A DNA stretch of 61,655 nucleotides, filler included, from Asterionella formosa (lineage: Eukaryota): NCBI GenBank assembly GCA_002256025.1. It is 15 parts of 15 records of this genome, joined end to end, with 100 filler letters (N's around TTAATTAATTAA, not from the genome) between each part and the next. Parts side by side here need not be neighbours in the genome. Positions count along the whole stretch, not along the records: positions 37,104 to 41,120 come from NKIB01013770.1; 14 more parts are not named here. One strand, given 5' to 3'. The notes beneath the pieces are model-generated. The model was given only the letters and a program-made list of their open reading frames with translations, was not told the DNA's origin and searched no databases. Below are positions 7,531 through 57,653 of the stretch, one piece after another. Position numbers and translations under genes: made by a program. Within the stretch, counting starts at the first letter, position 1. Each line of letters starts with the position of its first letter.

Positions 7531-7802
7531 TTAAACAACTGGCACATAAAGATTCGCTTAGTCGATCAATAATTCAGTAGAAATGCAGCATCAGCTGGCA
7601 GCATGACAAACAGCATGCCAAGGCACACTAACAACTCATGATTTACGGAGCCCTGTTATCATATGACATTAACACAGAATCAGAAAGCATCAATACTCAA
7701 TCCTGGATTTCATCCGAATGCTCCTGCACTGAATGGGTTTGCTACAATGTTAATTGAATGCAGAGGAAGATCAGTGTGAGTTTTCTCAATGTATATTGTT
7801 CC

Positions 7803-8161
7803 TGTTAGCTAGTCATGTTACATTGACACAACGACACACAATTCCAACGTATCCTCTTGCTTCACTTACCACAACGCAATGCAACTGATGCATAAGTCTG
7901 TAATAGTAACTTGTCAGTAAGCCAAGTTCTTGAATAAGTAAGTTTCAGGTATCCAATGTTGTCGAATAAAACTTACCGGTTCATTTTTGTCATCTTAACT
8001 TTGAGAGAAGGTAAACGTTTTGTCAGTTTTGTTCCAACAGAAGTGAATAGGTCCAACGAGCGACAAGAGCACTTACGCAATTTGGTTTGGTTTGGTTTTA
8101 CATTGCTGCTCCCCAACAAGCGAAACGAGCTGTTGAATCAACTGAGAAAAAAGGAAATGTG
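7803..8161 (-). repeat. Copy of the intron-dense dispersed repeat family
   Basis: Near-identical to 38615-38976. GTAAGT donors at 8076, 7976 and 7869; CTGAC/CTAAC branch motifs at ~8024, ~7915 and ~7806. Confidence 0.85.
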
Positions 8162-21991: not shown

Positions 21992-22120
21992 CGTCTGCAA
22001 ATAAAAAGTATCATGTATATAGGATCGAGGGTATCATATGCTAAGTGGCACAGGATTTTCGTATATATGATAATTTTTGGATTAAAACTATGATCAAGGT
22101 ATCTTGTAACTATGATGATT
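21992..22120. repeat. Terminal fragment of the intron-dense repeat family
   Basis: Starts CGTCTGCAAATAAAAAGTATC and is near-identical to 37874-38002. Related segments lie at ~15112-15250, ~48470-48570 and (inverted) ~51845-51907. Confidence 0.85.
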
Positions 22121-23131
22121 TGCTGTTGCCATCCAGCCAATTCACCACTGAATGCAGCTGCATCCTCAGTGTCACTGGCATCATGAGGCAATGGAGATCG
22201 CATGATGGAGGGGAGTCTGGTAAAGGAGGAGTAGTAGCTAACCTGTGTGTGTTGAGGGGGAGAAACGCTTGCAACGGATGCCAGGGACAGCTACATTAAT
22301 AAGGAACTGAGATTCTAAAGCAGTATTTAAGTTGCTGTAGATGGAAAAGCACCGACGGAAATTGAGCACTTACAGGAAGCTTGGTTGGATATACGGTGTA
22401 ACCGGTATATGGTACCAACAATGTACTCTACACAATATCAGATGCGGTAAAACAACATAAACTTCGGGTATACTCCAATATATATGTATACTGAATCTAT
22501 TTTTTATGTTGGGTTACATTGTTTGAATATATATATTGTACCCGGTCTGCATGTTCGAACAAATATTCGCAATATTCGGACTTTCTCTGAACTCCCGGGT
22601 ACATTGTTTGATTGTATAATATTCCCGGAACTCCAAACTCCCACCAGGTTTGGTAACAATGGGCACATACGGTATAGTAACAGGTACAACACACGAAGAA
22701 TACCAAGAGAGAGTTTTCTAAGTCCCAGAGGCGTGGTGGCAAAGAAATGGAAGCAAATTTTGTCAGAAGGATTCAAGCATCGCAGGATTATTGGACTTGT
22801 CCAACATGTGGTGGAAAAAAGGAAGACTATACGTGTGACTCTGAATAAGCTACTGCATCGCAAATGAACACGTCAAAAATTTATCAAAGCACCAAGCTAT
22901 TTCATGCTGGTGGTGGTTTGTGGATTGAGAATGAATTCATTTTCATTACATTTGATTTGATTTTCTACAACAGGTACTGCGGGTTGGTGTGGGATCCTTT
23001 CGAAAACAGCAGTGAAACTTCTGAATGTTAAATTATATATATATTTATATTTTTTATATTTATGGTAGACGTACAGAGAAATTCACATGCTCACACAACA
23101 AGTCATGTTCAAATCACTGATGGCTTGAATA

Positions 23132-24748: not shown

Positions 24749-26266
24749 CATCCAGCTGTCGTAGCTTACGATTCGTTCATCGAGTCAGCTGTGGTTCCAT
24801 TTTGCAATTCATGTTGCGAACTGGAAGGCATGCAGAATACTGGAGACCTTTTCAGGAACGCATGGGTAGGAATTCGGACTATTGTTATCTTGGCATCGCG
24901 TAGTAGGATGCCTGCTGGTACGTTGCACACGGAGCTTCAACCTCAATTGAAGCCAGTTCAGAATGCCTTGGAAGAGATGCGTAAGCTTCGTTTAGATCGA
25001 AAGTTTGACTGCCATACCAAGGCTATCGTAGAGCTTTGCGGGGCGCTCAGTTGGGTGCTCATCAAGCCACCTCCTCAACTCCCAGCTGTCTTTTGCAAGG
25101 AAATGGTATCTAGTTGCGAGTTTTGGTCCAATAAAATTAGAAAGGAATACAAGGGAAAGGATGAAAAGCACGTTGTATTCTGTGATGCTCTCAAAACGGT
25201 GGGAAAGGAGATTGTAGCTTACATCACTGAATACCACAAGACTGGTTTGGCTTGGAATCCCCATGGAGTGTCCCTTGCCGAGGCTATCATTACTCTGGAG
25301 TCAGAACCCGAGCCTCAACAAAATGATCCAGGTTCACCAAGGAGACGCAAGCAGAGTTTTGTAACTGGAGGGGCTGGAGGAATGAACACTTTGATGGCGG
25401 AGCTGCAGAAGAAGCAAAACTCCGATGGATCGTCAGCTGCAACTGGACTGAAGCGAGTAAGTATTCAGACAAGCAATAATTATGTCAACCAATGCGTTCA
25501 TCATTTTATTAATTACTGACATTTTCAAAACTAGGTAACAAAAGACCAGCAGACGTGGAGAAAGGAGTTCAAAGGTGAAAAATTGGCTGTTGTACCTGCT
25601 GCAATTGTCGAGAAGCCTGTCGATATCCACAACAAACATCACAAGAAGCTTTCTGGCTTACCACTTTTAGAATACCAAGACCGCGGCCATAAGTGGGTTA
25701 TTGAGCATCAGACGAAAGAGTCAGCGGCACTTGTTTGCGAGAACGGGATGTTGGTTGTTGAAATTACAGATCCAAAACAGCAAGTCTATATCTTTAGCTG
25801 TGACCATATCACTATCCAAATCCAGGGCGAAAAAGTCAAATCTATTATCATGGACAGTTGCTCAAATGTCAACCTAGTATTTGGAAGCTGCTTGGCAGCA
25901 TGCGAAACCGTCAATTGTAAAAAGATTCAAATCCAGACAACGGGCCTCTGCCCCAGCTTCAGCATTGACAAGACAGCAGGTTGCTTGATTTATCTCAGTC
26001 AGGACACGATTGATACGACCTCCTTTGTAACATCTCAGTCGAGTGAAATGAATGGTGAGTTATGCATAGCCATTTCTTTTTTTGGCTGTTTGATTTGAAT
26101 GCAAGTCACAGCATTTCTCATCCATTTCTCGTTTGGTTTTTCTTCCGTCCACCCAGTGAGCTTTCCCAATGGCGACGAGCACAAGGAAGTTCCTATTCCA
26201 GAGCAGTTCGTGCATAAAATATTGAAGGGAAACCTAACGAGTGAGGTATCTGATCTTTATCATTAG
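24749..26266 (+). CDS. CAP: Adenylyl cyclase-associated protein (CAP/Srv2), 5'-partial; exons <24749-25456, 25535-26054, 26157-26266
   Basis: Motifs EFWSNKIRKEYK, EYHKTGLAWNP, WH2-like GLKR|VTKDQQTWRKE across the splice, and CAP_C with SSEMN|VSFP...EVPIPEQF. GT-AG introns of 78 nt (CTGAC branch) and 102 nt restore the frame. Confidence 0.93.
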
Positions 26267-29347: not shown

Positions 29348-32300
29348 TCCTCCTCGTTACCATGTTCAAGAAGTTCTAAAAATGTACCGCTCAGTACAGG
29401 TCCAGATAACCTTGTAAAAATCTGCTCTTTGACATTCTTCATCAAAATGTCTGCTGGATTGTTTTCTGATCTTAGAAAAACAATATTCAACTCACCCTCA
29501 TCTATCATGTTCTTGACATGATGAAACTTGATATCAATATGTTCTGTTCTTTTTCCGAGCTGTTGATTCTTCACTGTGAATATTGCACTTGTATTTTCCT
29601 CACGTCAAATGCTTGGTAGGATATTTTTACCACCTGTCACTTTGTTCAGTAACATTGCAATAAATTTGATCTCTTGAGCACATTGCAACATCGCAACGTA
29701 TTCTGCTTCTCTGCTTGACAGTGCAACGGATGGCGGCCCTTTGATTGCCAACTGATCAACGCACCACCAATGGTAACCAGAAAACCCGTAGTACTTTTCC
29801 GGCTTACCTTATTAGTGGCCCAGTCACTATCAACATAAGCAATAACCCGTAATTCCTTAGGTTTTCGAATCTTGAAAACTCTGTCCAATTTGCTTGATAA
29901 GAATCCAATAACTCGTGAAACTCCATCCCAGTTTTCTTCGCCTGGACAGCTTAAATATGAAGATAATTCACGTACTGCATTGGCACAGTCCGGGGAATCT
30001 TTCTTAGTAGACCATAATAATTTCCCAACAATCTTGCGATATTCCGCCTCCATACTAATAGTTTCTCCATTATTGGCTCCTAATGTTTTTCCTGGTGCTC
30101 CTGGTGTCACATAAGACTTTATCTTCTTACCAGTACGCATCTCATATTCCAGTAGCATTTCAGTACGAAATTTCTTCAGCTGTACTTCCCAGTATTCTCC
30201 AAATTTGTCATGCTTGCGCATATATTCCAACCCTAAGTGTTTTCGTAGGGAACCTTGTTCCGTGATATTAAAATCTTCCTTGATCATATTTTTCATATAG
30301 TCGACTGCATTCCTGGTACCACATATAATTCCATCATCCACATAGTTTGCCAATAGCCCTTCAATTTGTCCATCATTCTTACGGTAGATAAACAACATTG
30401 GGTCTATTTCGATTTTTTTATACCTGTCTTGCTGGTGACGCATTTCGCAAATTGTCTTGGACCAGCATCTTGGAGCTTGCACAATTCCATACATAGTCTT
30501 AATTAGTTTGCAGATGTGTGTATTCTGATCATTCCCTGTCAATCCTTCTGGGGGCTCAAGAATATAAATGTCTTTGTCGACGTCAGCATTTAAAAATGCT
30601 GCTTCAACGTCGATTGCTTCCGCTATTGAGCCATAGTACATAGTAACAGCCAGAACAGTTTTTATTGTAGCATCACTTGCAACAGGAGCAAATGTCTCAG
30701 TAAAATCAACTCCCGGGATCTGTTCATATCCCTTCATGACCAACCGTGCCTTGTATACTGTCTTGCCAGTTATCACGTCCTCCTTAATACAGAAGACCCA
30801 CCTTGTCTTAAGAGCTCGCTTGTTCACCTCATTTCTCTTAAGAATTTTCCACACTCCTCTTACTTAGAAGTTTTCGAATTATTTCTTTATAGCTTTCATC
30901 CACTCTTTGCGGTCCGGTCTTGCCATCGCCTCATCATCACTATTTGGTAAACCTGGATCCGATGCAAGACTTGCATTGAATACGGAATTTACTTCAGTTT
31001 CCTTATTCGAAGAAGTTTCCTCCTCAATCACATTTGGTAGTGAGGTGTCTGGAGTGAATTTAACACTTTTAGTTGGATTATACGATGAGCGAGTCCAACT
31101 TCTTCATTTCTCATCCCAACTTTGCCTGTTTAGATAGGAGCGTAGTTGGGTTTTTAGTCTTTGCTCATTGCTTCAAAACATTTCTCTCTCCTAGGTGAGA
31201 CATTTCATAACTCCTTGAGGTAGATTTTCCTTTTTCAGTGTCTGCGGTTGATTTATCCTTGTCGTCGTCATCTTCCTCATTGTCTGAAACTTCTGGTAGT
31301 AAATCTTCATTGTAGAAATCATCATCTAATCCGTCATTATTGACTTCAGTTTCTGGTTGAACTGCAACTTTCTCTTTGGCATTGTCCTTGTAGATTTTTC
31401 CTAGTCCGTCTGTAGGTGCATTTGTTCCATGCCACTCACTGCACTTAACATTGCGTGTATTGATGACAGTGTTAGTCTCATGATTATACATACAATACGT
31501 ATCTTGGGAGTGGTCCTCCGAATAACCCAAAAAGACACATTTGAAAGAACGTGCGTCTAATTTCTTAATACCATGTCTTGCAGTAACCCAGCCTATGCGC
31601 CCAAATTGCTTGTATAACTTGTAGGGCCTTCTTGGATTCATCTCGCCGTAGAACATGTCGTCGGGACTTCTTTTAGTTACTGAGTTAACTTGACTATATG
31701 TTAAATTGTCATGATGCCGCTCAACTTCCATCCAAATAATTTCGCCGTAATCGTGCAAACATTTCTCGCCCACATGACCAAGCATTGCATGCGCTTCATT
31801 AATATCGACAATCACATAATTATTTTCAAACTCACCATTTTGATTATTCCATTTGTTCTTTCCCTTATTCGTTTTCTTTGCTTCAACTTTCGTCCAATCG
31901 TTTCGTTGTAGTCGTCGATCGATTGTTGTGTAGTGTTCTCTTGTAGTTGCTCGATTTCCATCACCGTTTGCTTGATGATCGGATTACCTTCGACATGATA
32001 CATTGCTCCGAGTTTTCGAGTTTTATCTCTTTTGCAGGTTAGAAAGCCGCTGTTGTTTCGTATAGTCATTATCGTCCTCGAAGATCACTTGATTACCCTT
32101 GTCGATCATTCTAGAGACACTGATGATGTTCTGCTTGAATTCCGGTGCATAAAGCATATCGGTGAGTTTCAAGCGTTTTCCTTCGTCCGTAGTCGTCAGG
32201 GTCATGGTACCAGAGACAGTTGATACTATCTCAGTTCCATTCCCTACCACGACCGTTTCACTCACTTGTTTCTTGTCTTCCATCATGCGCACGTCCGTGC

Positions 32301-32885: not shown

Positions 32886-33725
32886 NNNNNNNNNNNNNNN
32901 NNNNNNNNNNNNNNNNNNNNNNNNNNNNNTTAATTAATTAANNNNNNNNNNNNNNNNNNNNNNNNNNNNNNNNNNNNNNNNNNNNGGAAAACGAGGTAAT
33001 ATTTTCTAACCGTTTACCATTAAAAAGTATATATACATGATGAAAAATAAATGAATGGCTTAAGACCACTAAAATGCAAAATGAACGACTTAAAAAGTTG
33101 GATATCGCAAGATATATCCTTCCAATTGTTAAAATGATTCATTTATCTAGTGCTTGCATGCATTAGTTGACCTCTGTTCAAAGGGTTTTAAATGGCGTCG
33201 GCTGAACATTTTTCTAATTTTAGTCCAAAAACGGGGTAATATAGTGGTCTTAAGCAGTTTTTGACTGGTACCTGGTACCAGGGTACCTCAATCCACAGAT
33301 TACGTAGACTACAACGAAGTAAAATATAGTGAAAAGTAAAATTAGCTTTCACCAATAGCACGCTAAGGCCGGCCTAAGGCCATTGCTAACGGTAGACCAA
33401 AACGCAAACCAAACAGTGTTTTGGTTTCGGTAACCCTAAAACACGATGCTATCGGGAGTGAAAAACCCAACGCAACTGCATTACGTTTAGGGGATTCCGT
33501 GCCCATATCCCAATAAGTTACCCAAATGCATTACATTTAGGTTTTTTTTCAAGTTACCTAAACATAGGATTCCATATTGACTACTTTGAATGTAGTCACT
33601 AGAAAGCCAATTATTATCATCATAGGATCAGTACATATAGGACGCATCATTTACCAGTATATCTACATAGATACAACAATAGTTAAATGGTACTCTGGTA
33701 CCAGGTACCAGGGGACCACACTGTC

Positions 33726-33821
33726 AAGAACAACAAGAACAAGAACAACAAGAACAAGAACAACAAGAACAAGAACAACAAGAACAAGAACAAGAACAAG
33801 AACAACAAGAACAACAACAAG

Positions 33822-33918
<97 letters not shown>
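33726..33918. repeat. Compound microsatellite (AACAAG/AAC)n grading into pure (AAC)n
   Basis: Directly visible. It accounts for the poly-N, poly-T, poly-V, poly-L and poly-C ORFs in the track. Confidence 0.97.
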
Positions 33919-34724
33919 TAATGGCCACTGAACATGATTCCATGTTATTTCAACCACCAGAAGATGATAGTAGATGGTCATGTGGACCATTCACAATTGT
34001 GAAAATATTGGAAACTCTATTGCAACTAGAAAGGAATGGCAAAATCAAATTTCTTGGCAACCGGGCACAATTCCGTTTGGAGACGGAGTCCTGGAAAATT
34101 TTAAATTATCAGGTGGTAGCAACAGATGGAACAGACGATTTGTTATCTGTTACATCTGACCCACCAACCAAGTCAACATACTTTCATCTTGGAACAGTTT
34201 GGCCTCAAGTGCTGACAACGACAAATTCTAGTGAGAATATGTTTTTAAACGAGTAAATCATCAGTCCATTGATCAGTGAGACCATTTGAAACTGAACTTT
34301 CTTCCCTCACACTTTTTTTGATAAGTGGTTTCCCACCAATGTCGACAAAATCAGTACTAGAATGACGAATATCGTTCTCTGAAATTTCATGCGTATCTGG
34401 ATTGAAACCCACATATTTTTGTTGCAATCGGAATTTCCCTTTCAGCACCAAGAAGCAAAAGGCTTCTGCACTGGTATTGATCAGCAAACCAACAAAACGT
34501 GATTGCAATTCACACTGTGCCCGAAGACTTAGTTGAAATTTGGTCACACCAGACTTGTCTCCTGTTAAAAATGGTTCTCCACGGCTTGTCCTGCCTATAA
34601 ATACACAGGAGCAAGAACATCACGCCAGACTTGGTATCCATGGCTTCCTCTCTCAATGTCCTTTGACTGCGCAAGACGATAAAGCGTGAACGCCAGCTAA
34701 TAAAGTCATCAATATCCATAGTCT

Positions 34725-35190
34725 GGAAGTTATATTCTGATAGACCAGCTGGTGTGTCATGAATTATGTTAGCATTTTTAAATTGAAACATATTTGCTTG
34801 ATAAGAATATAATCACCGACTCAAAACATCATGCTTTCAGAGCATCTCCCGCCCTGCAAGAACTTACCTAAGATTCGCTCCTTTAAATTGATTATTCAAT
34901 ACATTCTGACATTCACTCGCTCAACTTTTTAATGCACATGCCACCAAATGTTGATTTGATTTAATCCAAACGTGCCTTGTTGGTACATTCAATGGTCTGA
35001 TTCATCGGAAGTAGAGCATTAGAACATTCCATATGAACAAATCGGCAAGCTCTGGGTCACTCTCGTCAACTTCTTTGCCTAACTCCAGTTTCACTGTGTA
35101 TAGCCGAGTTAGGCAAAATTCGGCAAACCAATCCTGTTTGTGATTGGAAATGCCTTTCATACTACTTGGACCTGATAGGGCGGGATGTTT
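34725..35190. repeat. Segment duplicated in inverted orientation at 40681-41120
   Basis: Nucleotide alignment by eye. Both copies translate to LSGPSSMKGISNHKQ.WFA..CLTRLYTVK.ELGKEV. Confidence 0.85.
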
Positions 35191-37003: not shown

Positions 37004-37873
37004 NNNNNNNNNNNNNNNNNNNNNNNNNNNNNNNNNNNNNNNNNNNNTTAATTAATTAANNNNNNNNNNNNNNNNNNNNNNNNNNNNNNNNNNNNNNNNN
37101 NNNTATTATAGAATTACGTGAACAAAAATTTAAGGCAATGTGAACTGAATTACAGAATTAATTGAAGTATTTCAAATAATTATGTGAAGTATTTCAAATA
37201 ATTATGTGAAGGTGATCACGTAATATAGTGATGATCAGGAAAGCATGCATGATACTCTGATCAAAAAATGAATGTGATGTATTCAGATAATATATAGATA
37301 TATTCAAAAAAGCATTTTGAAGTATTCAACTAATTCATGTGATCCATTCAAAATCAACTAGGCTTATTTACGTTATGGTCACTTCACGTAATACGCGGCT
37401 TAGATGTGTTGTACACATAGATCTGAATATCATCAATATTACTGATACTTTGTTTTATTTTATTCAATGTTGAATGGTTTCACTTGATTAGAATTTAGTC
37501 TGTAAAAAATTCAGTAAGTGATATTGGAATATATACAATGCTGTATGAGTTCATCTTTTACCACGGTGTAATATAGAGTATAAATAAAGGTTGTACGACA
37601 ATTAGGTACAGAGTAATAGTTAATGATATAATTAAGCCCCATCATGGAAATGACATAGACATAAAAAAGGGTTAGGGTTAGAATGCGAAGTATGGATATG
37701 TACTGCAGTCGTACAAAATTTGACGGAAAATGATCTTATGATTAGTTGTTAATGATTTTAACTCTAGTGTTTGTATTATCATGGTATACAGTAATACATT
37801 TTAAATGTTGTAAGTAGGGCCCTATTTCATCTACATCTGCTATCATGTTCACAAGTAAGGACTGCTAGGAGAA

Positions 37874-39440
37874 CGTCTGCAAATAAAAAGTATCATGCAT
37901 ATAGGATCAAGGGTATCTTACGCTAAATGGCACAGGATTTTCGTATATATGATAATTTTTGGATCAAAAATATGATCAAGGTATCTTGTAACTATGATGA
38001 TTTATTAATATTTTACCGACCTTGAAGTATAATGATAATAAGAACATTATCATCACACAATGTATATAATGATCAACAACATTTCCCATCAATATCATAA
38101 ACCTTCTCATATTATTTTCACTTCTTGTGATCGCCCAATGTAAATTATAACTACAACGTATCCTAAAACCAACTCAACCCTATGCTACCATGTGAACTTT
38201 TTAATCGTAAATCTATCATAAACATGATCATAATTCGAATCACAAGCATTGTTCAAAAAAGATTGAAATGGATCGTAATTTAACTATCAAATTCAGCAAT
38301 GCTATCTATTATTCTACATGCCAGCGACCCAACATTTCTCTCTCTACTCAGCTCAATGTATATTGTATGTGTCTCACCCTTTTCTTCCTCTTTTCTGAAT
38401 CTTGTGCCAAGCAATGCCTTACTAATGTTGTGTCTCTCTCCATGCTGTTAGTGTCATTGTGAACTCGCCGGCTATTCCGTTTGATCAATGTTGTCGAATA
38501 TACCTCTTGTTTCACTTACCACAAATCAATGAGACTGAGGATGCATAAGTCTGTAATAGTAACATGATTGGTTTTATGGTCCTATGCAGTTACAGAAACA
38601 ATGAGAAGGAATGATTTGTTAGCTAGTAGTCATGTTACATTGAAACAACGACACGCAATTCCATCGTATCCTCTTGCTTCACTTACCACAAATCAATGCA
38701 ACTGAGGATGCATAAGTCTGTTATAGTAACTTTTCAGTAAGCCAAATTCTTGAATAAGTAAGTTTCGGGTATCCAATGTTGTCGAATAAAACATACCGGT
38801 TCATTTTTGTCAGCTTTACTTTGAGAGAAGAAAACGTTTTGTCAGCTTTGTTCCAACAGAAGTGAATAGGTCCAACAAGCAACAAGAGCACTTACGCAAT
38901 TTGGGTTTTGTTTTACATTGGTGCTCCCCAACAAGCGAAACAAGCTGTTGAATCAACTGAGAAAAAAGGAAATGTGGCTGCGTTTAGTTAACAATTTGTA
39001 GTTGCCCTGCCTCCAAACAATTGTCATCCAAGTACCACATTGATGGTTTCATTAACTTGAACATTCTCCATTCTTCGAAGGCGCAATGTGTCGAAGTCAC
39101 AATGTTTTTCGTTATGTATTGCGTAAACTTTCTTTGCTTGTCATGTGCTTTACTACGACGTATCTTTTCATGAAACAGCAGGCATTGTTTGTTAACATGA
39201 CAGAACGATTTCAAAAATATATATGCCATGAATATAGTTATAAAATTTGTATATATATATATATGGTGTTATAAATTTATAAAATTCAATGGCGCTCTCG
39301 ATATGGAACATCTGATATGGTTAAAATGATCATACTCGAATATACATAATTCGAAAATACTAAATGCTCTATATGTCCATTGCTTTCCACAACTACGTGT
39401 ACCGGAATTGTTTCTGAAATTTGTTTGCATCGATATTTTC
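37874..39440 (-). mobile_element. Longest copy of the intron-dense dispersed repeat (putative non-autonomous element; right boundary uncertain)
   Basis: Sharp left boundary CGTCTGCAAATAAAAAGTATC shared with other contigs. The interior is homologous to 7803-8161, 48470-49343 and (inverted) ~50820-51907. Predicted introns: 39035-38957, 38895-38819, 38796-38718, 38686-38582. Confidence 0.65.
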
Positions 39441-39654
39441 TACGTCCGTTAAAACTAATTATTTAGACCATCAATTGGTGTAAGTCATAACCGCCAGGGT
39501 TTTGGTAGCAAATTGTCTTAGCCCCTTTTTTGGTTGGGAGCTCTTCATGTGTACCGGTACATCATATGACAATAACAATATATCATATATATATATACAG
39601 AGTACCAGTAGCAGGTAGAAAGTGATATACTGGGGGTAGTCGGAGTAGTAAACT

Positions 39655-39916
39655 AGCAACAGAACACCATATGTTCAGGACTGTTGCTACTGCAGTGGGA
39701 CAGTAAATCATCATAGTTGTAGGATTGTACGTTTGTAAAACTAAAAACCAATAGAACACCATATGTTCAGGACTGTTGCTACTGCAGTGGGACAGTAAAT
39801 CATCATAGTTTTAGGAATGTATGATTGTGAAACTGAAAAGCGGTAGTCGGAGTAATAAGCAAGCAATAGAACACCATATGTCTATGACTGCTGCTACTGC
39901 AGCGGGACAGTAAATG
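39655..39916. repeat. Three direct repeats of a ~50-bp core
   Basis: AGAACACCATATGTTCAGGACTGTTGCTACTGCAGTGGGACAGTAAAT at 39661, 39753 and (diverged) 39868. Confidence 0.9.
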
Positions 39917-42514
39917 AATCTAAGATCATCAAACTTTAAGGAAGACAACGACAGCAGTTATCAAGTAGTACAATGTCTTCAAGAAACCATAAAGAGGTTC
40001 ATGGAAAAAAGCGACATGTGGCAAATTGCTACTGCCGGTATGGAACAAAGAAGCAAGTTCCAAAATGAGTTTACAAAGAAAAAGCGAATAGGCGATTATC
40101 CAAAGCAACCCAATCAGCGATTAGGAGACGTTGGGGGTAATACCCCATTGTCGATGGGTACACCATCAGCTACTAGTACAAAGAATCCCGTAATTGATAC
40201 TGACAGCGATGATGACATTACTACTTAAATGGTTGATACAAGAAAAATGGCTCCTGTCGATGATGCCATTAATAACTCCCGGATGTTGATGGACTACATG
40301 GTACCATATCATAAATTTTCTATTTGCACGGACCAACATGTTCATGAAAAACTAAGTGAAAAACATTTTGCACTTGCCAAAGAATATTATCAATCGGTCA
40401 ATGAACTCAATCACTACAAAGGTCATATTTTGGTTCAAAACTCACTTGTCTATACGAGGTTATCAAGACTCTTCAATTTCAGCAGCCTTATCAGAACATC
40501 GTTCTTGCCTAGCTAAACTTGAACCATCAATTGTCACAAAGGTTGTGAGTTGATTTTATTTTCAAGACCAAGAAGTTTTGCTGTGAACCTGTAAGTTTGA
40601 TGTTATAGTTTGTGAATTGCAGGTACTGTAAAACAGAATATCAATCAAATGTGTTTTTTTCTGTTCCCAAAAGAGAATCAAACATCCCGCCCTGCCTATC
40701 TGGTCCAAGTAGTATGAAAGGCATTTCCAATCACAAACAGAAATGGTTTGCCAAATGTTGCCTAACTCGGCTATACACAGTGAAACCGGAGTTAGGCAAA
40801 GAAGTGGAGAGTGACTCAGAGCTTGCCGATTTCATATGGAATGGTTCTGATGCAATACTTTCAATGAATCAGACAGACCATTGAACATACCAACAAGGCA
40901 CGTTTAGATTACATGAAATCAACATTTGGTGGCATGTTCATTAAAAAGTTGAGAGAATGTCAGAATGTATTGAATAATCAATTTAAAGGAATCTTAGGTA
41001 AGTTCTTGCAGGGAGATGCTCCGAAAGCATGATGTTTTGAGTCAGGGATTATATTCTTATCAAATATGTTTGCCAACATAATTCATGACACACCAGCTGG
41101 TTTAACAGAATATAACTTCCNNNNNNNNNNNNNNNNNNNNNNNNNNNNNNNNNNNNNNNNNNNNTTAATTAATTAANNNNNNNNNNNNNNNNNNNNNNNN
41201 NNNNNNNNNNNNNNNNNNNNAGATGCTCCACAAGATTGCAAACATGAACCTTTCCGTTGCAGACGATGACACAAAGGTTTTCAGGCCTGTCAATCGATGA
41301 AAATTGGTTGATAATTATGACATACAAAGCGGTTTTGTGACTGCTCATCATCGCATGGCGGCTGCTCTGAATCCTAGAAGGACAGAGGAGGACATGATAT
41401 CCTTTCATCATGATGCATGCAAAATGGTACTATTTTGAATCTCTGGCCCAAATTAAACCTGAAACCGGGTTCAACATTGTATTGACACACTGCACAGCTG
41501 AATTTTCTTCAATTGAATCTGCCGTGGGGCTTGCCAAACTATAGGAGCATGAAAAAAATGATGGACAAGGAATGCTGAACAGCATTGTTCCAACATTTGT
41601 AGTACTGCCATGGGGGCTCATCCTGATGTGCAATGTGCAGAGATTCCTGACATTGCACAAGCATCTGTTCCCAATCAGATCGCTATGAAAGAGGGCTATT
41701 CTTGAATGCATCTTTTGATTGAGTTTTACCATGCAGCTTTCCGGCAACATGGACTTCAGATGCTCCATCATTTTCTACCACTGCAAACTTTGCTAACAAA
41801 GATAATGCTTTGTGAATATTGAATTTTACTGTTACCTTCAGAGGTAAAGGAATCAATTTCCGGAGGGTTAATGAAGTGTCTGGAGATGTCAGCTGCTCTC
41901 TCTGGTGGAATCTAGGCATATGAAGTTTTTCATTGGATAGGTTCAATCAATTGACCACTGGTGGAGGGTGAGACAAGCCTGTACTTGTTGATATAATGTC
42001 TGCCGGAAAATTGCTGGGCATTGCATCAGCTGCAACACCAAACAGTACAAAAAATCATTGCTGCATCCATTGTCATTGACAATTCCTGCAAAGAAATCCA
42101 GGATTGCTTCTCTTCTCATGCATACTTGCTATTACAAAATCTTTCTTAGAGCAGTTGATTTGTTAATTTTCTCTCCCGAAATTACAAGGAGCAGAAAAAC
42201 TATTTTTCGAGAGAAAAAGCACATCATCAAAGTTAGCATCAAATCATAAAGAAATCAAAAATAATGTAGATGACTGTAGAATGACTTGGCATGCAATGAC
42301 TGTTAACAATAATGCAAATTTGAAGCTGAAGGATTTTTGAGTATTGAGACTACCAAAATGATTTAGTGAATGACTTTAAGCGAAAATGCTATTTAAAAGA
42401 AGAAATGGCACAGTATGCATTTTTCAAAGCTCCTGAGTGGGATTCGGATTTCTTTCTATATTCTATTGGGTGTATAATAAAATATATCTTCTTTTTAATT
42501 CATCTTAATTATAT

Positions 42515-45046
42515 TTATCCAATTCGACGTCTTTTACTTTTGACAAGACAATTAGAACATATTGTTCCTTGCTCACCTGCAACTTGATAGCCTGATATAT
42601 GTTTTTTGTAAGAGATGATACATTGATGCAATTGAATGATGATGTCACCACACACATCACACATACCGGTTGTCATCAATGTAGAATTGTATGCATCACC
42701 AACTTTCGCAACTTTGGCTACTTCAATTGCTTCAGTAATGGTTCCAACTGTGGTTTGTGGAATATGATCCTTGTATGCAGGTTTAGCTGTCAATTCAAAT
42801 TCAACTGTAGGTTTGATGACACTTTTTGCCTTCACTGCAGGCATCTCAGTAGCTGATGGTGAAGATGTCAAACCTTGATTAGAAATTTGCAATGCTAGAT
42901 AGTCGAAATTTTTTGTCAGATGCTGCTCAATATTTGTTATGGTAATCATTTTCGAATTCAAACCGGTTAAGGAATCATCTACAACTTGCAGAATGATTGT
43001 TGATGTTTTGTTTGTCTTCAAAATGAGGGCTTCAATGCGCTTAACAACTAGCTTGATTCTTGAAAATCTTTTGCTTTCTGCTTGAGTGAAATTGAAACGC
43101 CATTGGTTTTTGAATTTCGCTTCTAGCTGAAAAATGCCGCCCTGGAAACACCCTAGATTATTATTGTGATCAAAGAAGTGTGTACCAAACCATTCATGCC
43201 AAATCGACAGGCAGCTCAAATGATTCTTATAGAGTTCATACCTTGGACATCCATTTTCATTTTTCTTCATGTGAATGGCACTAACAGATGTTGAAACCCT
43301 TTGATCATTCAAAGATCTATTACTTTGTATTGATGATGAGGGCTGTGCAGATGATGAAAAATCGAAGGATGACAAATGATTCAAAAGAGACTGTAAGTGT
43401 TGTGGTCGAACTAAGCCATCAACTCTATCGTTCAACTGTGAAAAGTTTGCTCTCATTTCAGAATGCAAATTTGTAAATCGATCTCTGACACCAGGTAAAA
43501 TATAGTCAATTCTAAGATCCACTGGATCCTGAACCAAATTCAGATGATGACTCATATTCTTTAAAAATTCTTTGAACTCTTCACAGTTAAACACATCCAA
43601 TGTGAACAAAAAATGACCCCGACCATTCAATATCATTGTTGCTGCATCTTGCAGAATGATGACACGGAGGCAAGAGAGCAAATTAAGAAAAGCATAGACG
43701 GCAGAATTGGTAGCTGCATCAATAGATTCAATTTCTTTTTCAATAAATGGAAAGATAGTTTGTTGCAGGGTGATTGAAGGTTTGATGTGATCTCGTGGCA
43801 AAAAAACACTTCCTTTTTCATCTGGATGGCCAGCCATAACACGCATGGCTTTCATTGGCAGTTTAGCTTAACAAACATCACGTCGAGTATCCACATTCCA
43901 ATTTCCAAGGTCATTGATGTTATAGCCATCAAGTTCATCCAGCTCTGCTTTGACTGAACCAGCCGATCGACCAAAATGCACGAAATGTTTTGAAATAATG
44001 CCAAGGTGTCTGCAAGCATTCTTCATGTTACTCGCATATGCCTGATCAGTTACTGAAAAAGTGTTGTCGAAGCCCCGAGAATCTGTCAACAGCTTAATAT
44101 TGAACCAGGCTTTGTTTGAAGTAAAATCAAATGATTCTGCTTCTCCACTCTGCATAAATCTTGCCATTAAATAAAATCCAAGAGCACCAATAGCACACTC
44201 ATTGACATTACGATGTCGAATACAACGTCCATAAAGAGTCTTTAAACCATTTGTTTTCCCAGTAGCAATGCGCATCACATGAATTAAAATATCCTCTAGA
44301 ATTAAAATATCCTCTAGACTATTTTTATCCTTGTGTAACAAGGAACAAAGATCACTAAGTTCGCACTTAAAGAGTGATTCGCCTCTTAAGATCCCATTTG
44401 TTGTCATCAAAAGACAATATCGATCACATAAAGATGCCACTGAATAAATGGATGATAACGAATTTTTTTGAAAGAAAAAATCTTCAAGTCTTGGTATATC
44501 TTGAGCAGCAGTGTATGGCGTGAATTCACTTGTCAATTTTTCATCGAAATTGCTTTTCGCAGTTTGTGTCTTTCTCGTTTCTACTGTCTTCAGCAATCTT
44601 TTGACATGGCCAGACATTAGTACTTCCTTGGGTATGTTGTTGCATCCTCCATCCCGTTGTTGTGCATGCAAATCTAGGATGGCTGATCGATATTGATTGA
44701 GTACACTATATCCAATTGGCTTGTCTGAAATCCAATCAGTGTTGGAAATTACAGATTCATGATCATCCTTTGAAAATTGTTCTTCCACAGGTGTACATTG
44801 ACCTGGTCGTCCTCTGGGTCGCTGATGACGTCTTGATTGATACCATAAAAAGCCAAAGAACTTTTCTTCTGTCACTGTTGTAGATGGGATGCCATCCACC
44901 TCGGACGGAAAGGCATAACGGGAAAAATCAAGGAATTCTGCCATTTTTCTTCTATAGGCAAGAATGGTGTTTTCCGGACGACCAGCCTTATCGTCTGCTG
45001 CAACCTGTTTTGCTTGAGCTGCGAATTTTCCACTTGTGTATGACAT
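42515..45046 (-). mobile_element. Crypton-type (CryptonF-like) tyrosine recombinase transposon gene, NDC10-like YR + GCR1_C, inactivated by one in-frame stop
   Basis: ORFs 43868-45046 and 42515-43855 are in the same frame, separated only by TAA (RRDVC*AKLPMKAM). Motifs: RPENTILAY, ILRGES (R), GKTN (K), RHRNVNECAIGALGFYL, HFGR (HxxR), LGNW. GCR1_C-like IWHEWFG...LEAKFKNQWR...KRFSRIK. Confidence 0.85.
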
Positions 45047-45333
45047 GCTTAAATTGGAATAAATGATGTTGGTAATTTGGGAGGAGGTTGTATAGATTAT
45101 GTGGTAACGAATTCAATTCAAATGAAGAAGGGATGAGACAGGCAAAGAAGAACGAGAGTTTGGTTTTGGTTGTAACAAGATGATGATAACAGCGAAATTA
45201 CAAACATTCATGATCACTGCCTGTGTAAACGGTNNNNNNNNNNNNNNNNNNNNNNNNNNNNNNNNNNNNNNNNNNNNTTAATTAATTAANNNNNNNNNNN
45301 NNNNNNNNNNNNNNNNNNNNNNNNNNNNNNNNN

Positions 45334-46388
45334 AACAAGGTTGGGGTCCATTGAACTACAACTTTTTGCTCAATCTGGGAATCCAACTGACAAGTACCTC
45401 AAATCTGCAAACAGAAGCAAACAATTATCAACCAGTCTCTTCCATTCCCCCATCCGGAATAAACTTGAGCCAAGGCATCAATGGAGCCCTTCTTGTTGAT
45501 CAGGTTGTACAGTATCGACATCATGAGGACGCTAGAAACAGAATAAATCTGGACAAACTTGCCAGCCAACAAAAAGAAACAGCACCAAGGGCGATTACAA
45601 GCAATAAACGATACACAGCCAGTCTTCATGTCGCTACAGGTAGGTTCTTCAACTCCTGAAGTGGTCGATGACAAGCTGAAAAGGAAGAGGCATGCTGAAT
45701 AAGTGCCGAAAGGGAAAGAGAATAAGAAATTAGATGCACATACAGCACTTGTAAACAAGATTTATGCAATCAGAACTCTAAACAAGCAGCTTGTAGAGTG
45801 GACAGTGGCGCAAACAAAAAAATGCAATGTGGTACAAGCGAGCAAGCCAACAACAAAGCAACTTCTACTAACCAGATACCATGACACCATGATGTGCAGC
45901 AATGCTGCAGTACCAGTTGCAACTGCAATGGTACCACTTCCTCACCCTTTGGTTGCTCCTATTACATGACAAGATATGATGGGAGGACCACCAGTCTAAG
46001 AACAATGCAACGACTACTGCGACAAAATGGGGGGAGTCTTTGATGGAACCGACAAGATAAAATGGGAACACCATCAATATAAGAATGATGCAACCAACTA
46101 CTGAGAAAAAACATGCAAACGATGTAATATTTTCTACCCCTCGCCTATGAGAATTACTAAATGTATGTTAAAATTTTAATCAATGGCTTTGAGCCACTTC
46201 GACCGGTTTTGTCACTTTTAAAAGGGATAGATCTCAGTTAATATATACCCGGTATGTTCAAGTAAAGATTGATCTAATTCTCATGTAGGTTAATGAACTA
46301 ACTAATATTGTGCCAAAGGGCAAAAGAGGGGATCGATTTAGCATAATTCCAGTTCAAGTCGGAAAACGGTATTGATCACTAATATGTG
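45334..46388 (+). mobile_element. Partial second copy of the pogo-like element at 58743-60823
   Basis: Collinear nucleotide similarity from GGTTGGGGTCCATTGAACTAC through the 3' subterminal region. The right TIR is missing. Confidence 0.8.
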
Positions 46389-47749: not shown

Positions 47750-48469
47750 GGTGATTAGTTGTTGCTTGTAGGTGGTCCAAGACGTTGCTGTTGCAGCCTG
47801 TTTCGATTTTATGATCAACCAAAGACCGGTATGTAGTTTTGCTGAATCCAAATCTTGGTATTCTCCGGAGGCCGGAGTACTTTGTATCTTTTTACATGGA
47901 CTGGCGGTACCTGGTACCTGGCACAAGCATGTAGAGTACCTGGTACCTGGGTATCATACGGGTAAAGATACCGGTATGAATTTTGATTAGGTACCTACTG
48001 GTACCAGGTATGCCACTACATACCATCGCTCTTTTGCCGTGTCAGCAACTTTTGGTCTGTGTTCGAAAATGTTCTTCGAATCTCCAAGAAGGGCGAATGA
48101 ACAACAATTTCTAGTACACATAGGTGGTCAGTACTGTCCGGTACCTCTCCCTTGCTTGACTGTGTTGAAAATATGGTATAGAGAAAGGCAAAAATTCTAC
48201 CCAGTGGTACTGGGGGTAGAAATTTTTTTCACATTTTGGTACATAGAATATTCTACCAACGGACCGATGGAACCCTGCAGTATGCCATGGTATCGTCCAA
48301 GAAATTCTACCACGATACAACAAGGTATGAAATGGGATTGAATTTAAAAATTAAACTAAATATCAACATGGTGACAATGCCAACAAGAAGAGTAAAAGAA
48401 CCTACACAATCCCCTGTTTACAAGAGTGTCTTTATTGCTATGATTGTCTGTAATTAAAAAATATCATGA

Positions 48470-49343
48470 AAATATGATCAAGGGTATTGTGCACTAAGTG
48501 GCACAGGATTTTCACATATATGATAGTTTTTCGATCAAAAATATGATCAAAGTATCATATAATTATGATCATGCAGTAAACTTTTACCCAGCTTGAAGTA
48601 TGATGAGACTATCATAGTTATAATACCATTGCATCATATAATTAGTTAAACATGGTCATATGATGTGTATACTTTTGTCATACATCCATCTTAGCATGAT
48701 CGTAATTCTCATCGATATCACTGTCTAAAATAGGATGAAATTGATCGAAATTTAGAAGTATATTTAGCTAAGAATGGTTCTATGATTCTATATCTTAAGT
48801 GGCTACAGAATGTTCTACAATGCTCTCATCGCAATGATTGTTGGTGCCGCTTTCACTTCCACCTTCCCCCCAATCCAATTCTGAAGGTTGTTGTACTGGT
48901 TGCCTTGCCGTTGTTCCCCTGCTTTGTTCCATTTACTCCTGAGTGTTGTTCTGAGTTTGCACTCACGCATTTTCCTATTACTATTGAATCCGTTTTGTTG
49001 TTCCAATCAGCCATACTAACAAAGAGAAGCAATTCATTGTTAGCTGTTCATGTTTTGCTTACACAACAACATTCATTTCGCTTCTATCTTGCTTCACTTA
49101 CCACAAATTGAGGAAGTAACTGATGCTTATTTCTGTAGAAGAATGTGTCAGTCGAAGATTGAATGAGAAGCAAAGTATCGATCAATAAATGGGCTCCAAC
49201 ACTGCTCTTTGTAACATACAAATACTGTTTGTCTACCATTATCCTGAAAGAAGCAACACATATGTGTCAGTTTTTCTAACAGTTGTGGATTGATCCAAAG
49301 ATGGCTGATAGGCAGCACTTACCGATTTCTTTTGTCCACATTG
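48470..49343 (-). repeat. Diverged copy of the intron-dense repeat family
   Basis: Subterminal AAGTGGCACAGGATTTTC. Predicted introns 49322-49244, 49219-49133 and 49101-49016, each with a CTGAC/CTAAC branch motif. Confidence 0.75.
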
Positions 49344-50033: not shown

Positions 50034-50819
50034 TTGGTGAAATCCCACTCCAAGGCAAACTACATACATGATAATATTTTTACTGCTATATACATATATC
50101 TTTATCATATAGTACTATGGTATTCCTACCAGGGTACTTCCTGCTGTAATTTAACATGGCAACTGAAGGCAACTTCCTGATATCAAATATATTCTACACC
50201 CTCTATTTCACAGATACTGGTCCCACAGCCCCATCCCTACGTGCTGCTGCAGGATCTTTTTGCCCCCACCATAATTTTGTCTTTGGACAAGGCAGCATGT
50301 ACTGTTGCCAATCTGAGAAATTCTCCTATGGACAATCATAACCGCTTTGCTTATATTGACACTCCCCAAAAGGAAGCGCCCAAAAGCACAAACAAGAAGT
50401 AAAAGCTTGAAATCTGGACATAGATGCAAAGTATATTTGGCACCTACTTCCAGCACCACCTGCATGATTCATAAAGCTTGATTCATATATCCTACACATT
50501 TGATCAAAGCATATTTCGATGATATGATAAAATGAATCAACTAATTAATAAAAGATTTGTAACATGTTAAGAATATTGTATGACTCCCGCTACAAGAATT
50601 GACATGGAAAAAATTATAAAAACAGCACATCAGGTCGTGGAAAAAATGATATCCTCATGCATTATATATATTTGAATTATGAATAAGCTTAACTGATAAT
50701 GGTATTCACATGAGGTGCGATATAAAGAGTGTCTTTGAACTATGAAATTGTTCAACTCAAGTTTATATATTTATGCATTTAATTTTTTTTTAATTTTTAC
50801 CTGACAAAGATAGATTTTA

Positions 50820-51907
50820 AATCGTGTTAAAAGGTTTCTTGTCATGCATACTACCGATAACACATCCTGAAATGAGAGATCACATCAGCCACATGACAAA
50901 GAAAACTGAAGCGACTCTACAACACAATAATAAACCTTGCGGCTGCGATAAATTGAAAATGCATCGTGAATGGAATCTAGCTATGCTATCATGTTAAGGG
51001 CAAATGCCTGGATGATCTTTTGTTGGGTACAAAAAGAAAAGTTTTTTAAATTTCGCATTTGGTGGGAAACTATCAATGTCGAAAAAATACAATTGGTAAG
51101 TGCTCTTATTGGATCGCCCATCAATATACAACCGTTAGAACATCACTGACATATGCGTTTTTAGGATAATTTTAATCAAAGAGTTTTGTTGAAATTCATA
51201 AATATCATTGATAGAACAATTTGTTGATAATGCGTACTCATGCGATATTCAACTGACATATTATTTTAAAGAATTATGCGAAAAGTTTAGTGTTGAGGTT
51301 TAAACAAAACATGGATGACGGATTATTCCTTCTCTGTGTTAGTATGATGAGAAAATCAAAATAGAAAATAAACAGAATAGCTCATGCGAATTCAGAATCG
51401 GAGCAAAGGAAAAGGTAGTTGCAGCAAAAAGTCAAACAAGTTTAGGAATCAGAGTAAAAGGGAGGCGGGAGGCAAGCATAAAGATCATTGAAGGGAGGTG
51501 TGGAGAAGCATGCATCCTCAATAGCATTGAAGGGTGGCGAGAAATATGCATCAAAAGCATTGAGGCAGTAGAAAAGGGGAACATTGGCTGGTGTTTAATT
51601 GCCCAGAGTATAGAAAAAAAATCATTTCTAGATATAGCAGTAAAATTATTGTCCATTTCAAAAAAATTTAAACAGTCATTTTGATAAGAACTACCATCAT
51701 GTTAAGATAGCATATATATGATAAAACAATGTAAATAATAGGATAATGAATTAATAAATATATGGTGTATTGTTGTCATTTATAAGTCTGCTTAAAATGA
51801 TACACTTATATTATGCATTTATCATGCAAATAAATAAATAAAATTCTGTGCCAGTTAGCATACAATACCTGTCATCTTATAGATATGATACTTTATATTT
51901 GCAGACG
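50820..51907 (+). repeat. Highly diverged, inverted copy of the intron-dense repeat family (left boundary uncertain)
   Basis: Ends GATACTTTATATTTGCAGACG, the reverse complement of the family terminus. Retains GTAAGTGCTCTT...CTGAC...TTTTTAG at 51096-51164. Confidence 0.6.
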
Positions 51908-54799: not shown

Positions 54800-55050
54800 T
54801 AGAATGGCTTCCAAAAAGTCTGTCAAAAGCTATTAACAATTTGGTTTATAACATTGGAGTTCGATGTACCTTCGTGTCGCCTTTCAAATTCCGGTACGAA
54901 TCCACTAGTGATGCAGGTGAGATTGTGACTGCGAATATACCCTGTAGATAAAGGTTCACTCATCTAATTAACCAGGTGACATATCCACTGACGCGCTTGT
55001 TGGAACCGGCGACGTTAGCACTATCGCATCGTGAGACAAGTGCATGGCAT

Positions 55051-56753: not shown

Positions 56754-57653
56754 ATTCTTGACAGCTGATATGGTATTATGATATATTTAGGAATGGATAC
56801 GGAATAGAAAAGGTTTGCATCGGTACACGGCCTAGGATGTAATGTAACAACAACTCGCTACAAACATCTTCTCAAACTTCGATTTTGAAGTCAAAAAATA
56901 AATTAAAATTTATATCCTGTCTGTACCAGGGTACCTGGTAGCTGTTACCTGGTAGTACTGTAGCTAAACCCTGCCAAGCTGCCAAATAAGTGCCGGTAGA
57001 CTACCTGTATTCCGGCACCTACCGTACTGTTGTAGTGCACAACCGGAAAACTGTATTCTACGAGTAGTCCAGTTTGAATAAATATTTGTATGGTCCTCAA
57101 AGCCCGCAGTCTACCGGTATGTAGTAGTAAAAACAACTACCAGGGTATTACATATTTGCCCACATTGTTGTGCAATGGACTTCAATTTCAACATCACTGT
57201 GAAACAACTTAACCATGACAACAACAAGATCGGATGGTACAATTATTAATAAAATGTATACTTGTTAATTAAATTTCTAAGAACATACATTGTGAAGAGT
57301 CTGTACTCCTAGAATGGCAACATGCATTGGACAATTGTTGGATGTAAACAACTCATGGGACAGATACATTCCCCTCCAAGCATATCGAAAGAATACAATT
57401 TTTGCACAAAAGTGTCTGAAAATGAACAAATCATCAGTCAGGGGCGGAATTGAATTCATGACTATTCATGCCATGCAAATTTTCACACAGTCAACTAAAG
57501 GACAAGCAGTGTATTGATAAATGTCTATATGTAACTTTGAAATGACCTAGTATNNNNNNNNNNNNNNNNNNNNNNNNNNNNNNNNNNNNNNNNNNNNTTA
57601 ATTAATTAANNNNNNNNNNNNNNNNNNNNNNNNNNNNNNNNNNNNNNNNNNNN

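Follow-up and report, generated by a model that had tools for sequence, protein, structure and literature searches.

The DNA analyzed in this study, hereafter called the window, is a stretch of 61,655 bases from the genome assembly of Asterionella formosa (GCA_002256025.1) and consists of 15 separate unplaced contigs, not of one continuous locus. The pieces, which run in near-descending order from 4,033 down to 4,002 nt, are held apart by 14 spacers of 100 nt each (4034-4133, 8162-8261 ... 57554-57653), all composed of N44 + TTAATTAATTAA + N44, a stop-codon linker. Adjacency, spacing, and position across spacers therefore say nothing about dispersal. Our analysis centered on the piece at 37104-41120, for which a sequence-only reading had proposed, at 37874-39440, a member of a dispersed repeat family that carries a conserved run of short spliceosomal introns and micro-exons. 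We found that 37875 to about 39400 holds a copy of a repeat, ~1.5 kb long and very abundant, of a diatom-like alga; the core of the repeat is here named M1, and its intron-like pattern is well beyond chance. Genes on other pieces of the window are eukaryotic, namely, those for CAP, an LRR protein, an FMN oxidoreductase, a cyclin, an RRM/zinc-knuckle protein, and a Copia-type reverse transcriptase (RT), plus NDC10_II/GCR1_C open reading frames (ORFs) of the Crypton type. Since the best named relatives of the FMN oxidoreductase are from diatoms (Cyclotella, Seminavis, Nitzschia, and Epithemia; 61-69% identity), the attribution to a diatom made earlier is reasonable.

BLAST and global alignments revealed five copies or fragments of M1 on five different contigs of the window, four of which are named c38, c7, c49, and c51 (Table 1). 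Further members were fetched from public metagenome contigs using a 19-nt motif across the exon 4/intron 4 boundary. Ten of the 22 resulting loci (given L-numbers) are members of the family, with 72-98% identity, and the other 12 have the motif alone. Subfamily A comprises c38, c7, and 8 metagenome loci (87-98% identical), subfamily B comprises c49, L010, and L011 (both loci 91-98% identical to c49), and subfamily C is represented by c51. The copy c38 shows 92% identity to c7 over 365 nt, which bears out the recurrence postulated at 7803-8161; it is collinear with c49 over ~1,060 nt (38935 to the 37875 end) and with the plus strand of c51 over ~1.5 kb at low identity. Homology among the three subfamilies spans about 39393 to 37875 according to BLAST, in agreement with the limits proposed from sequence alone.

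Table 1. Features of the repeat M1 and its surroundings (positions count along the window)
Feature	Position	Strand	Remarks
Core repeat unit M1, copy c38	37875..39400	-	collinear with 48446-49343 and 50640-51907; BLAST limits 39393 to 37875
AT-rich, TATA-like start region and putative exon 1	39056..39270	-	ends TTCAAG in c38, TTTAAG in relatives; exon end from RNA junction
Intron 1, 99 nt	38957..39055	-	consensus donor GTAATG (c38 TTAATG), branch CTAAC, acceptor CAG
Exon 2	38896..38956	-	61 nt in c38; 60 or 65 in relatives; 63 in subfamily B
Intron 2, 77 nt	38819..38895	-	GTAAGT, CTGAC, AAG
Exon 3	38797..38818	-	22 nt; 24 nt in subfamily B
Intron 3, 79 nt	38718..38796	-	consensus GTAAGT...CTGAC...CAG; c38 GTATGT and CTGAA
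Exon 4	38687..38717	-	31 nt in c38; 28 in most A copies; 31 in B
Intron 4, 105 nt	38582..38686	-	GTAAGT, CTAAC, TAG
Copy-specific duplication (intron 3 3' end, exon 4, donor 4)	38503..38563	-	makes extra GTAAGT at 38519
Putative long terminal exon, ~700 nt, no ORF >65 aa	37875..38581	-	polyA and cDNA RNA contigs on 38304-38429 and 37875-38010
Conserved terminal region	37875..38053	-	plus-strand start GTCTGCAAATAAAAAG, repeated GATCAAGG(G)TATC motifs; recurs in the window at 21993, 48446, and 51906 (minus strand), once in L008
Copy c7, subfamily A, variant 3' part	7531..8161	-	cut by contig end at 8161
Terminal-region fragment only, 130 nt	21992..22121	-	94.6% identity
Copy c49, subfamily B, three intact tiled introns	48446..49343	-	cut by contig end at 49343, 21 nt past 49322
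Copy c51, subfamily C, decayed	50640..51907	+	only intron 2 homologue (51096-51164) with full signals
Three tandem ~92-nt copies	39657..39955		between minus-strand unit and plus-strand gene; metagenome contigs often end there
Plus-strand gene of no known family, pseudogene in c38	39914..41120	+	intron GTAAGT...AG ~40591-40675; second donor GTAAGT at 40998

Logan contigs of one DNA run (X1) and three RNA runs (X12, X20, and X22) were mapped on the 4-kb piece at a likeness of at least 90%. The run X1, labelled as an algae metagenome, contains 0.84 of the words of this piece and possibly represents the source sample; 253,687 of its contigs map to the piece. Across the repeat, their word depth sums to 0.4-5.1 million, compared with about 1,130-1,190 for single exact-match contigs at 37414-37818; the depth is not a copy number and is read only as hundreds to thousands of variants. 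Among the runs listed, parts of the 4-kb piece occur in 24 runs of 20 studies, mostly freshwater metagenomes. Three contigs of the window and several metagenome contigs terminate inside the repeat family.

The end of M1 at 37875 is sharp (GTCTGCAAAT...), with five unrelated flanks in five copies. Among the 24 loose ends displayed out of 940, those of X1 contigs at 37874/37876 have continuations that agree mutually at only 0.40-0.45. The other end was located only to about 39393-39440. The multi-copy nature and the five flanks thus uphold the proposal of a dispersed repeat family, but the positions of the copies within the window are no proof of it, since the contigs are joined. At 15100-16401, weak and roughly collinear matches to M1 (37887-37947 versus 15114-15175, 77%) reach a contig end and suggest a further, strongly diverged copy.

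The minus-strand GT..AG segments 39035-38957, 38895-38819, 38796-38718, and 38686-38582 lie where the sequence-only reading had placed them, as do the exons between them (61, 22, and 31 nt) and the additional GTAAGT at 38519. Two details had to be revised. The first donor, GTACTT at 39035, is a stand-in for the true donor GTAATG at 39055, which is mutated in c38. The GTAAGT at 38519 is the product of a 61-nt duplication specific to c38 (38503-38563 = 38670-38730, 93% identity) that is absent from L008 and other relatives and that 20 X1 contigs skip (joints from 38561-38563 to 38744). Intron 1 has its donor (AAG+GTAATG, at 39055) in 8/9 covering copies, c38 being the one in which it is mutated, and its acceptor in 9/9. 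The signals of intron 2 are retained in all 10 subfamily-A copies, and B and C have the same donor and branch there; donor 4 is likewise intact in 10/10 copies of subfamily A. Upstream, an AT-rich block and a TTTGAAATC motif are conserved across subfamilies A, B, and C, and transcription probably starts in this region. Downstream of intron 4, the sequence up to the sharp end would form the terminal exon.

Individual copies have decayed. The copy c38 is one of these, as donor 1, donor 3, and branch 3 are lost, and this in c38 alone. In L004, a 42-nt deletion that lies between two ACTTAT repeats ends exactly at acceptor 3 and removes it, a deletion in L009 removes acceptor 1, and among A copies the length of exon 2 varies (60, 61, or 65 nt) via an AAAC repeat. 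A satellite or tandem origin of the intron run was rejected, as internal repetition was limited to three short repeats (13, 15, and 61 nt). Also rejected was the idea that the four introns are copies of one introner; they have no likeness beyond the signals, including by eye.

The whole window was scanned on both strands for strict intron candidates of 60-120 nt with a GTA[ATC]GT donor, a CTRAY branch lying 8-45 nt from the end, a YAG acceptor, and a stretch free of AG from the branch to that acceptor. Fifteen candidates were obtained, compared with a mean of 5.5 (standard deviation, 2.5; maximum, 13) in 200 first-order Markov simulations of equal length. Six of them are in the M1 family, namely, 7976-7898, 38686-38582, three in c49 (49322-49244, 49219-49133, and 49101-49016), and 51096-51164. 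A run of three non-overlapping candidates within 500 nt, as in c49, was found in 0/200 simulations, in which the largest run was 0 in 2, 1 in 177, and 2 in 21 cases. The three tiled introns of 79, 87, and 86 nt postulated at 49016-49322 and the 69-nt plus-strand candidate at 51096-51164 were thereby recovered. Outside the family, the scan returned the 78-nt intron of the CAP gene at 25457-25534, which is real-looking (GTAAGT, CTGAC, TAG) and had been named earlier as a size standard, and a candidate at 48023-47947 just upstream of the oxidoreductase ORF. A 71-nt intron claimed for the RRM gene was not recovered; a relaxed scan of 55000-57553 gave only candidates of 73 and 98 nt. Consensus introns 1-4 of subfamily A and the three introns of c49 show the features of U2-type GT-AG introns (GT, a YTRAY branch 10-45 nt ahead of the acceptor, host-like size), except that intron 2 of subfamily A ends with AAG instead of YAG. 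At 77-105 nt, the M1 introns compare in size with the CAP intron of 78 nt.

Splice signals are selectively conserved between the diverged subfamilies. L022 (subfamily A) was aligned with L010 (subfamily B) from acceptor 1 to acceptor 4, and 45 signal positions were marked in A (three 6-nt donors, three 5-nt branch motifs, and four 3-nt acceptors). Of these, 44 are identical in the two sequences, compared with 222/392 of the other columns (57%) or, counting ungapped columns only, 222/293 (76%); the one-sided Fisher P values are 1.4e-9 and 1.3e-4, respectively. Conservation in the exons does not exceed that elsewhere (47/67, 13/24, and 22/32 columns identical), and intron interiors are the least conserved parts. 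The earlier statement that splice motifs persist while the interiors drift is borne out by these counts. Support independent of the alignment comes from the three fully intact, tiled introns of subfamily B. The idea that M1 is a relic of an intron-rich accessory gene, put forward in the same reading, is disfavored by this selective retention.

Analysis of the RNA contigs provided evidence for removal of intron 1. One cDNA contig of X22 matches exon 2 to 38958 and then continues with 13 letters that are not intron. Read in reverse complement, these letters are present in 6 family loci, always directly before AG+GTAATG, and are one base off the exon 1 end of c38; hence, the contig represents a junction of exons 1 and 2 formed at the corrected donor. 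This single contig supports splicing of intron 1. Introns 2-4 may be spliced as well, but the RNA contigs seen across them are unspliced; the junction check in RNA proposed earlier thus yielded one supporting contig, for intron 1. RNA libraries can contain DNA, and the run X12 covers 28/30 bins, as expected of DNA contamination or pervasive transcription. RNA-contig cover is absent from 37506-37773. Joints were assessed as the best 15 of 101, ranked by support, which favors the deep DNA run; the DNA joints displayed are structural variants, and none lies at an intron. Two RNA contigs, of X20 and X22, with a depth of about 280-290, the highest of those runs here, join 38304-38429 to degenerate telomere-like CCTAACC.../CCCTAA repeats, with a loose end at 38429, and some copies may be subtelomeric or feed telomere-repeat-containing transcripts. 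The c38 contig carries a short CTAACCCTAACCC stretch at 37690-37702.

In line with the short, stop-terminated peptide described from manual splicing, spliced c38 and c49 contain stops in all three frames. The lengths of exons 2, 3, and 4 are 60/22/28 nt in most A copies, 61/22/31 nt in c38, and 63/24/31 nt in B, and these differences are not multiples of three. In subfamily A, an open frame of 94 aa (38984-39268) stays in register through the junction at intron 1, enters exon 2, and meets a stop in exon 3 when exon 2 has 60 or 65 nt; subfamily B has a stop in the corresponding frame, nine codons ahead of the exon 1 end. Pfam gave no match for this 94-aa upstream frame, a gathering scan of the whole window against Rfam yielded no match, and no tRNA was found. 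Because of the stops, the non-triplet differences in exon length, and the lack of a Pfam, RNA family, or tRNA match, we read the M1 unit as non-coding. No family of transposases or host proteins was matched by the spliced sequence, so that this refuting outcome named in the sequence-only reading did not occur.

Downstream of intron 4, the copies of subfamily A are of three types. Those of the first (c38 and L008) run on to the end at 37875, as B and C do; since this downstream part is common to B and C, it represents the older arrangement. Those of the second (L006, L012, and L022) diverge one base past the AG of acceptor 4 and continue with more short exons and introns; in L022, as judged by eye, the exons measure 62 and 28 nt and the introns 71 and 74 nt. 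Aligned with c38 at 38581-38582, these three loci have ...CTGCATAGG in common and thereafter unrelated sequence. The third type (c7, L001, L003, L004, and L009) diverges within intron 4, right after the branch motif. The divergence at the acceptor of intron 4 could be a coincidence or a recombination or RNA-mediated join at the splice site. In this variant 3' part of L022 (1672-1844), one micro-exon and the 3' part of its intron have a counterpart in the window at 4469-4558, there before a different donor, GTAAGA.

M1 fits none of the classes for which it was tested, namely, introner, terminal inverted repeat (TIR), long terminal repeat (LTR), short or long interspersed nuclear element (SINE/LINE), Helitron, Crypton, and small nucleolar RNA (snoRNA) host gene. 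Regarding TIRs and miniature inverted-repeat elements (MITEs), the terminal 23-mer has 4 matches in the window, always at the same end of different copies and with no inverted partner. No shared target site duplication (TSD) was detected in the flanks at the 37875-type end. Direct repeats flanking the unit, as in LTR elements, were not found, and the Copia-type RT ORFs lie on other contigs. Neither a tRNA or Rfam match nor an A-rich tail at either end indicated a SINE/LINE type. Introns are retained on both strands of the larger subfamily-A repeat, which argues against retroposition of spliced RNA and for a DNA route, by which M1 would move. With respect to Helitrons, the end reads GTCTGC... 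with a C before it in 4/5 copies, and there is no CTRR at either boundary; no systematic hairpin search was made. No tyrosine-recombinase domain as in Cryptons was detected by Pfam, phmmer, or PDB profile searches, for which a full-length protein was not available. Comparison by hhalign of the neighboring plus-strand gene (Table 1) with the NDC10_II ORFs of the window gave probabilities of at most 0.2%, and tblastn with those ORFs also returned nothing. As for a snoRNA host gene, Rfam had 0 matches in the whole window, and no C/D boxes were seen by eye.

Several known systems nevertheless invite comparison. PMC12130899 describes introners, intron-generating transposons of Micromonas, Aureococcus, fungi, dinoflagellates, and others, as belonging to many transposon classes and mentions diatoms. 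Like M1, they are high-copy repeats of aquatic protists with conserved spliceosomal signals, many of them non-autonomous and of unknown class. In an introner, however, the whole element is one intron of a host gene, and its ends provide or co-opt the splice sites, whereas M1 is a unit of ~1.5 kb with four introns of its own plus micro-exons, its end at 37875 is no splice site, and no copy was seen acting as a host-gene intron. M1 copies adjoin other repeats or lie 490 nt from a gene, and none is inside coding exons. Cryptons, which according to PMC3212892 include CryptonS in oomycetes and a diatom, resemble M1 in that they lack TIRs and long repeats, have ends that are difficult to define and genes with introns, and are present in stramenopiles. 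M1 differs from them in that searches with the plus-strand gene found no recombinase match. The most ordinary analogue is a non-autonomous DNA transposon in which some of the exons and introns of the parental transposase gene survive. Such elements share with M1 conserved ends and a decayed, intron-bearing unit. They typically occur as abundant defective and rare expressed copies, which here is the pattern of the plus-strand gene. In contrast to them, M1 has no TIRs or TSDs that could be found, its exons match no transposase, and its signals are conserved without a frame. snoRNA host genes have short, poorly conserved exons and conserved introns. They are similar to M1 as multi-intron, non-coding, spliced transcripts with unconserved exons, but they conserve intron interiors, whereas in M1 the interiors drift and the splice signals alone persist. 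In the full-text literature on introners and Cryptons in diatoms and on conserved splice sites in non-autonomous elements, no such unit was found described, which is not proof of absence.

The plus-strand gene is oriented divergently from the M1 unit, and three tandem 92-nt repeats lie upstream of the unit in c38 and L022. The gene belongs to the larger repeat of subfamily A and not to the core common to B and C, the upstream flanks of which differ. A polyA RNA contig of 1,680 nt (X20 record 23) maps to 39928-40588 and then to 40674-40995, and this gap fits the GTAAGT...AG intron of the gene. RNA contigs are without four 4-nt stretches that c38 carries after 40026, 40550, 40691, and 40870. The form without them is rare in the DNA run (5,000/300,000, 2,369/668,000, 4,639/1.48 million, and 17/170,000 in depth units). 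L022 is without the first of these insertions, and its frame is open where c38 has a stop. From these data, which stem from differing samples, we infer that the gene in c38 is a pseudogene copy and that the rare intact form is expressed. Pfam gave 0 families for 14 ORF pieces of the gene, and phmmer, run exhaustively against 1.8 billion representatives, returned only 23 fragments of the gene's own family, with 56-93% identity. A word-based protein search returned 12 close hits, again family fragments only, and a PDB profile search had 0 matches. A language-model Atlas look-up placed the gene nearest to DUF3435, DUF3504, and ResT-TelK clusters (0.87-0.89), which is a lead only and otherwise unsupported.

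In L008 (1-790), the plus-strand gene, in its 3' part, runs directly into a further copy at a terminus of the 37875 type, and one open frame spans the boundary. This would fit units of ~4.0 kb arranged head to tail or as a circle, but L008 is a single observation, and four other copies have unrelated flanks there. A further copy of the gene in the window, at 34246-35190 on the minus strand, breaks off at 34246. It adjoins a 189-aa open frame at 33687-34256 (plus strand) that consists mostly of (CAA/GAA)n, i.e., poly-N/K, and is probably a microsatellite expansion, not a gene.

Other repeats were noted as well. A second high-copy repeat, present at 37104-37411, 4755-5095, and L022 2141-2482, has a sharp end (...CGCGGCTTAGATGT) with three different flanks. 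It is dense in TTACGTGAAC / ACGTAA and ATTTCAAATAATTATGTGAAG motifs, resembles the subterminal region of a DNA transposon, and lies ~500 nt downstream of the intron run in L022-type copies. Two adjacent minus-strand ORFs of 450 and 414 aa at 42515-45112 encode NDC10_II and GCR1_C, a Crypton-type pair unrelated in sequence to M1. Copia-type pieces (RVT_2, retroviral SH3-like domain) lie on the minus strand at 29646-31983 and 6177-6758, and the first two contigs carry long inverted repeats of 94-96% identity at 2698-4033 and 6211-7530. Blocks of 85-158 nt with 87-89% identity occur in the same order on two contigs at 45338-46244 and 59739-60665, offset by about 14,400; these are either a further repeat or diverged duplicate or allelic contigs.

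Diatom genes are intron-poor, which makes four consensus-strength introns within 500 nt of an abundant non-coding repeat odd. We favor, with moderate confidence, the explanation that M1 is a non-coding unit of RNA polymerase II (Pol II) that is transcribed, that at least intron 1 is removed from the transcript, and that splicing is selected in source copies. Read on the minus strand, the unit would begin with the AT-rich start and exon 1, contain four short GT-AG introns (99, 77, 79, and 105 nt) with exons of about 60, 22, and 28-31 nt between them, and close with a terminal exon of ~700 nt that reaches the sharp end. In source lineages, selection would hold the splice signals (donors, branch sites, and acceptors) against a drifting background of exon and intron interiors, and daughter copies would decay afterwards, c38 being already three signals down. 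Signals kept in source copies next to decaying daughters are expected if splicing matters to the element, or to a few functional source genes, and not to the copies in their thousands. We can only guess at the likely role of splicing, which might be to provide a stable, host-like transcript that helps the element, e.g., through intron-dependent enhancement or escape from RNA silencing.

A number of observations speak against this explanation. Support for splicing comes from one contig with a 13-letter overhang in an environmental sample. X20 record 20 (38686-38859) is unspliced over intron 3, exon 3, and part of intron 2, X22 record 27 (38904-39004) is unspliced across acceptor 1, and there are no joints of RNA runs among the best 15 of 101. 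The comparison of A with B is that of a single sequence pair, and alignment programs are prone to anchoring on identical motifs. In subfamily C (c51), which looks dead, most signals are gone and intron 2 alone is whole. Furthermore, the unit amplified within subfamily A is larger than M1 and a mosaic, and among hallmarks of mobility no TSD, TIR, LTR, or poly(A) was found for M1. The proposal of a mobile element with a spliced non-coding transcript therefore stands as regards the repeat, the non-coding exons, and the one junction contig, and not as regards mobility.

Distinctly less probable, although the foremost among the rivals, is a neutral origin in which the 5' part of a host gene was captured by or duplicated with the repeat and amplified, its introns being fossils and any splicing incidental. 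The lack of coding capacity would fit, as would the mosaic structure, with three downstream parts joined inside intron 4 or 1 nt past its acceptor, the free decay of single copies, and the fact that most of the visible RNA contigs are unspliced. It does not account well for A and B matching at 44/45 signal positions while differing at 24-43% of the other columns, nor for the run of three intact tiled introns in B, which is absent from 200 simulations; also, no parent gene of the host was found, the host genome itself not having been searched. We are more doubtful that M1 is a mobile "intron cassette," i.e., a non-coding element that needs splicing in order to propagate. Having gone through the spliceosome, the transcript could be marked as host-like and thus be shielded from RNA silencing, or the spliced RNA could be needed in trans, and it would be explained why donors, branch sites, and acceptors alone are held constant across subfamilies.

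That the run is instead a protein-coding micro-exon gene, such as a second gene of an autonomous element or one for a small secreted peptide, with a rare intact version and frameshifted copies here, seems improbable to us. The plus-strand gene does behave in this way, its RNA form being rare in DNA, and the 94-aa frame of subfamily A crosses the intron 1 junction in frame. Against it stand the stop in exon 3 with the commonest lengths of exon 2, the change of exon 3 from 22 nt (A) to 24 nt (B), the stop ahead of the exon 1 end in B, and the blank Pfam result for the upstream frame. Slightly more improbable still is that the splice sites are kept for the sake of the host, part of the element being spliced from host transcripts in an introner-like or Ds-like form of buffering. 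Consensus-strength signals within a non-coding element would agree with this, and a polyA RNA contig of 2,449 nt (X20 record 18) joins the terminal 136 nt of M1 to unrelated sequence, so that some copies sit inside transcripts; but splicing of the introns would take out only about 360 nt, whereas the element measures 1.5 kb or more, its termini are not at splice sites, and no copy was seen as a gene intron. A chance resemblance to introns in AT-rich repeat DNA, with nothing spliced, is barely credible. Short GT..AG segments are indeed common, and the first donor originally named, GTACTT, is weak, but the simulations, the conservation between A and B, and the RNA junction all oppose it.

In practical terms, the M1 family breaks assemblies and will seed false multi-exon gene models in diatom annotations. 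If its splice signals are fossils, M1 is one more unclassified repeat only. If selection maintains them, M1 would be a test case for why mobile elements keep introns, be it for expression or for escape from silencing, and also for the origin of intron-generating elements. Should the intron cassette exist as such, it would constitute a reservoir of pre-adapted splice signals for single-intron introners in diatoms.

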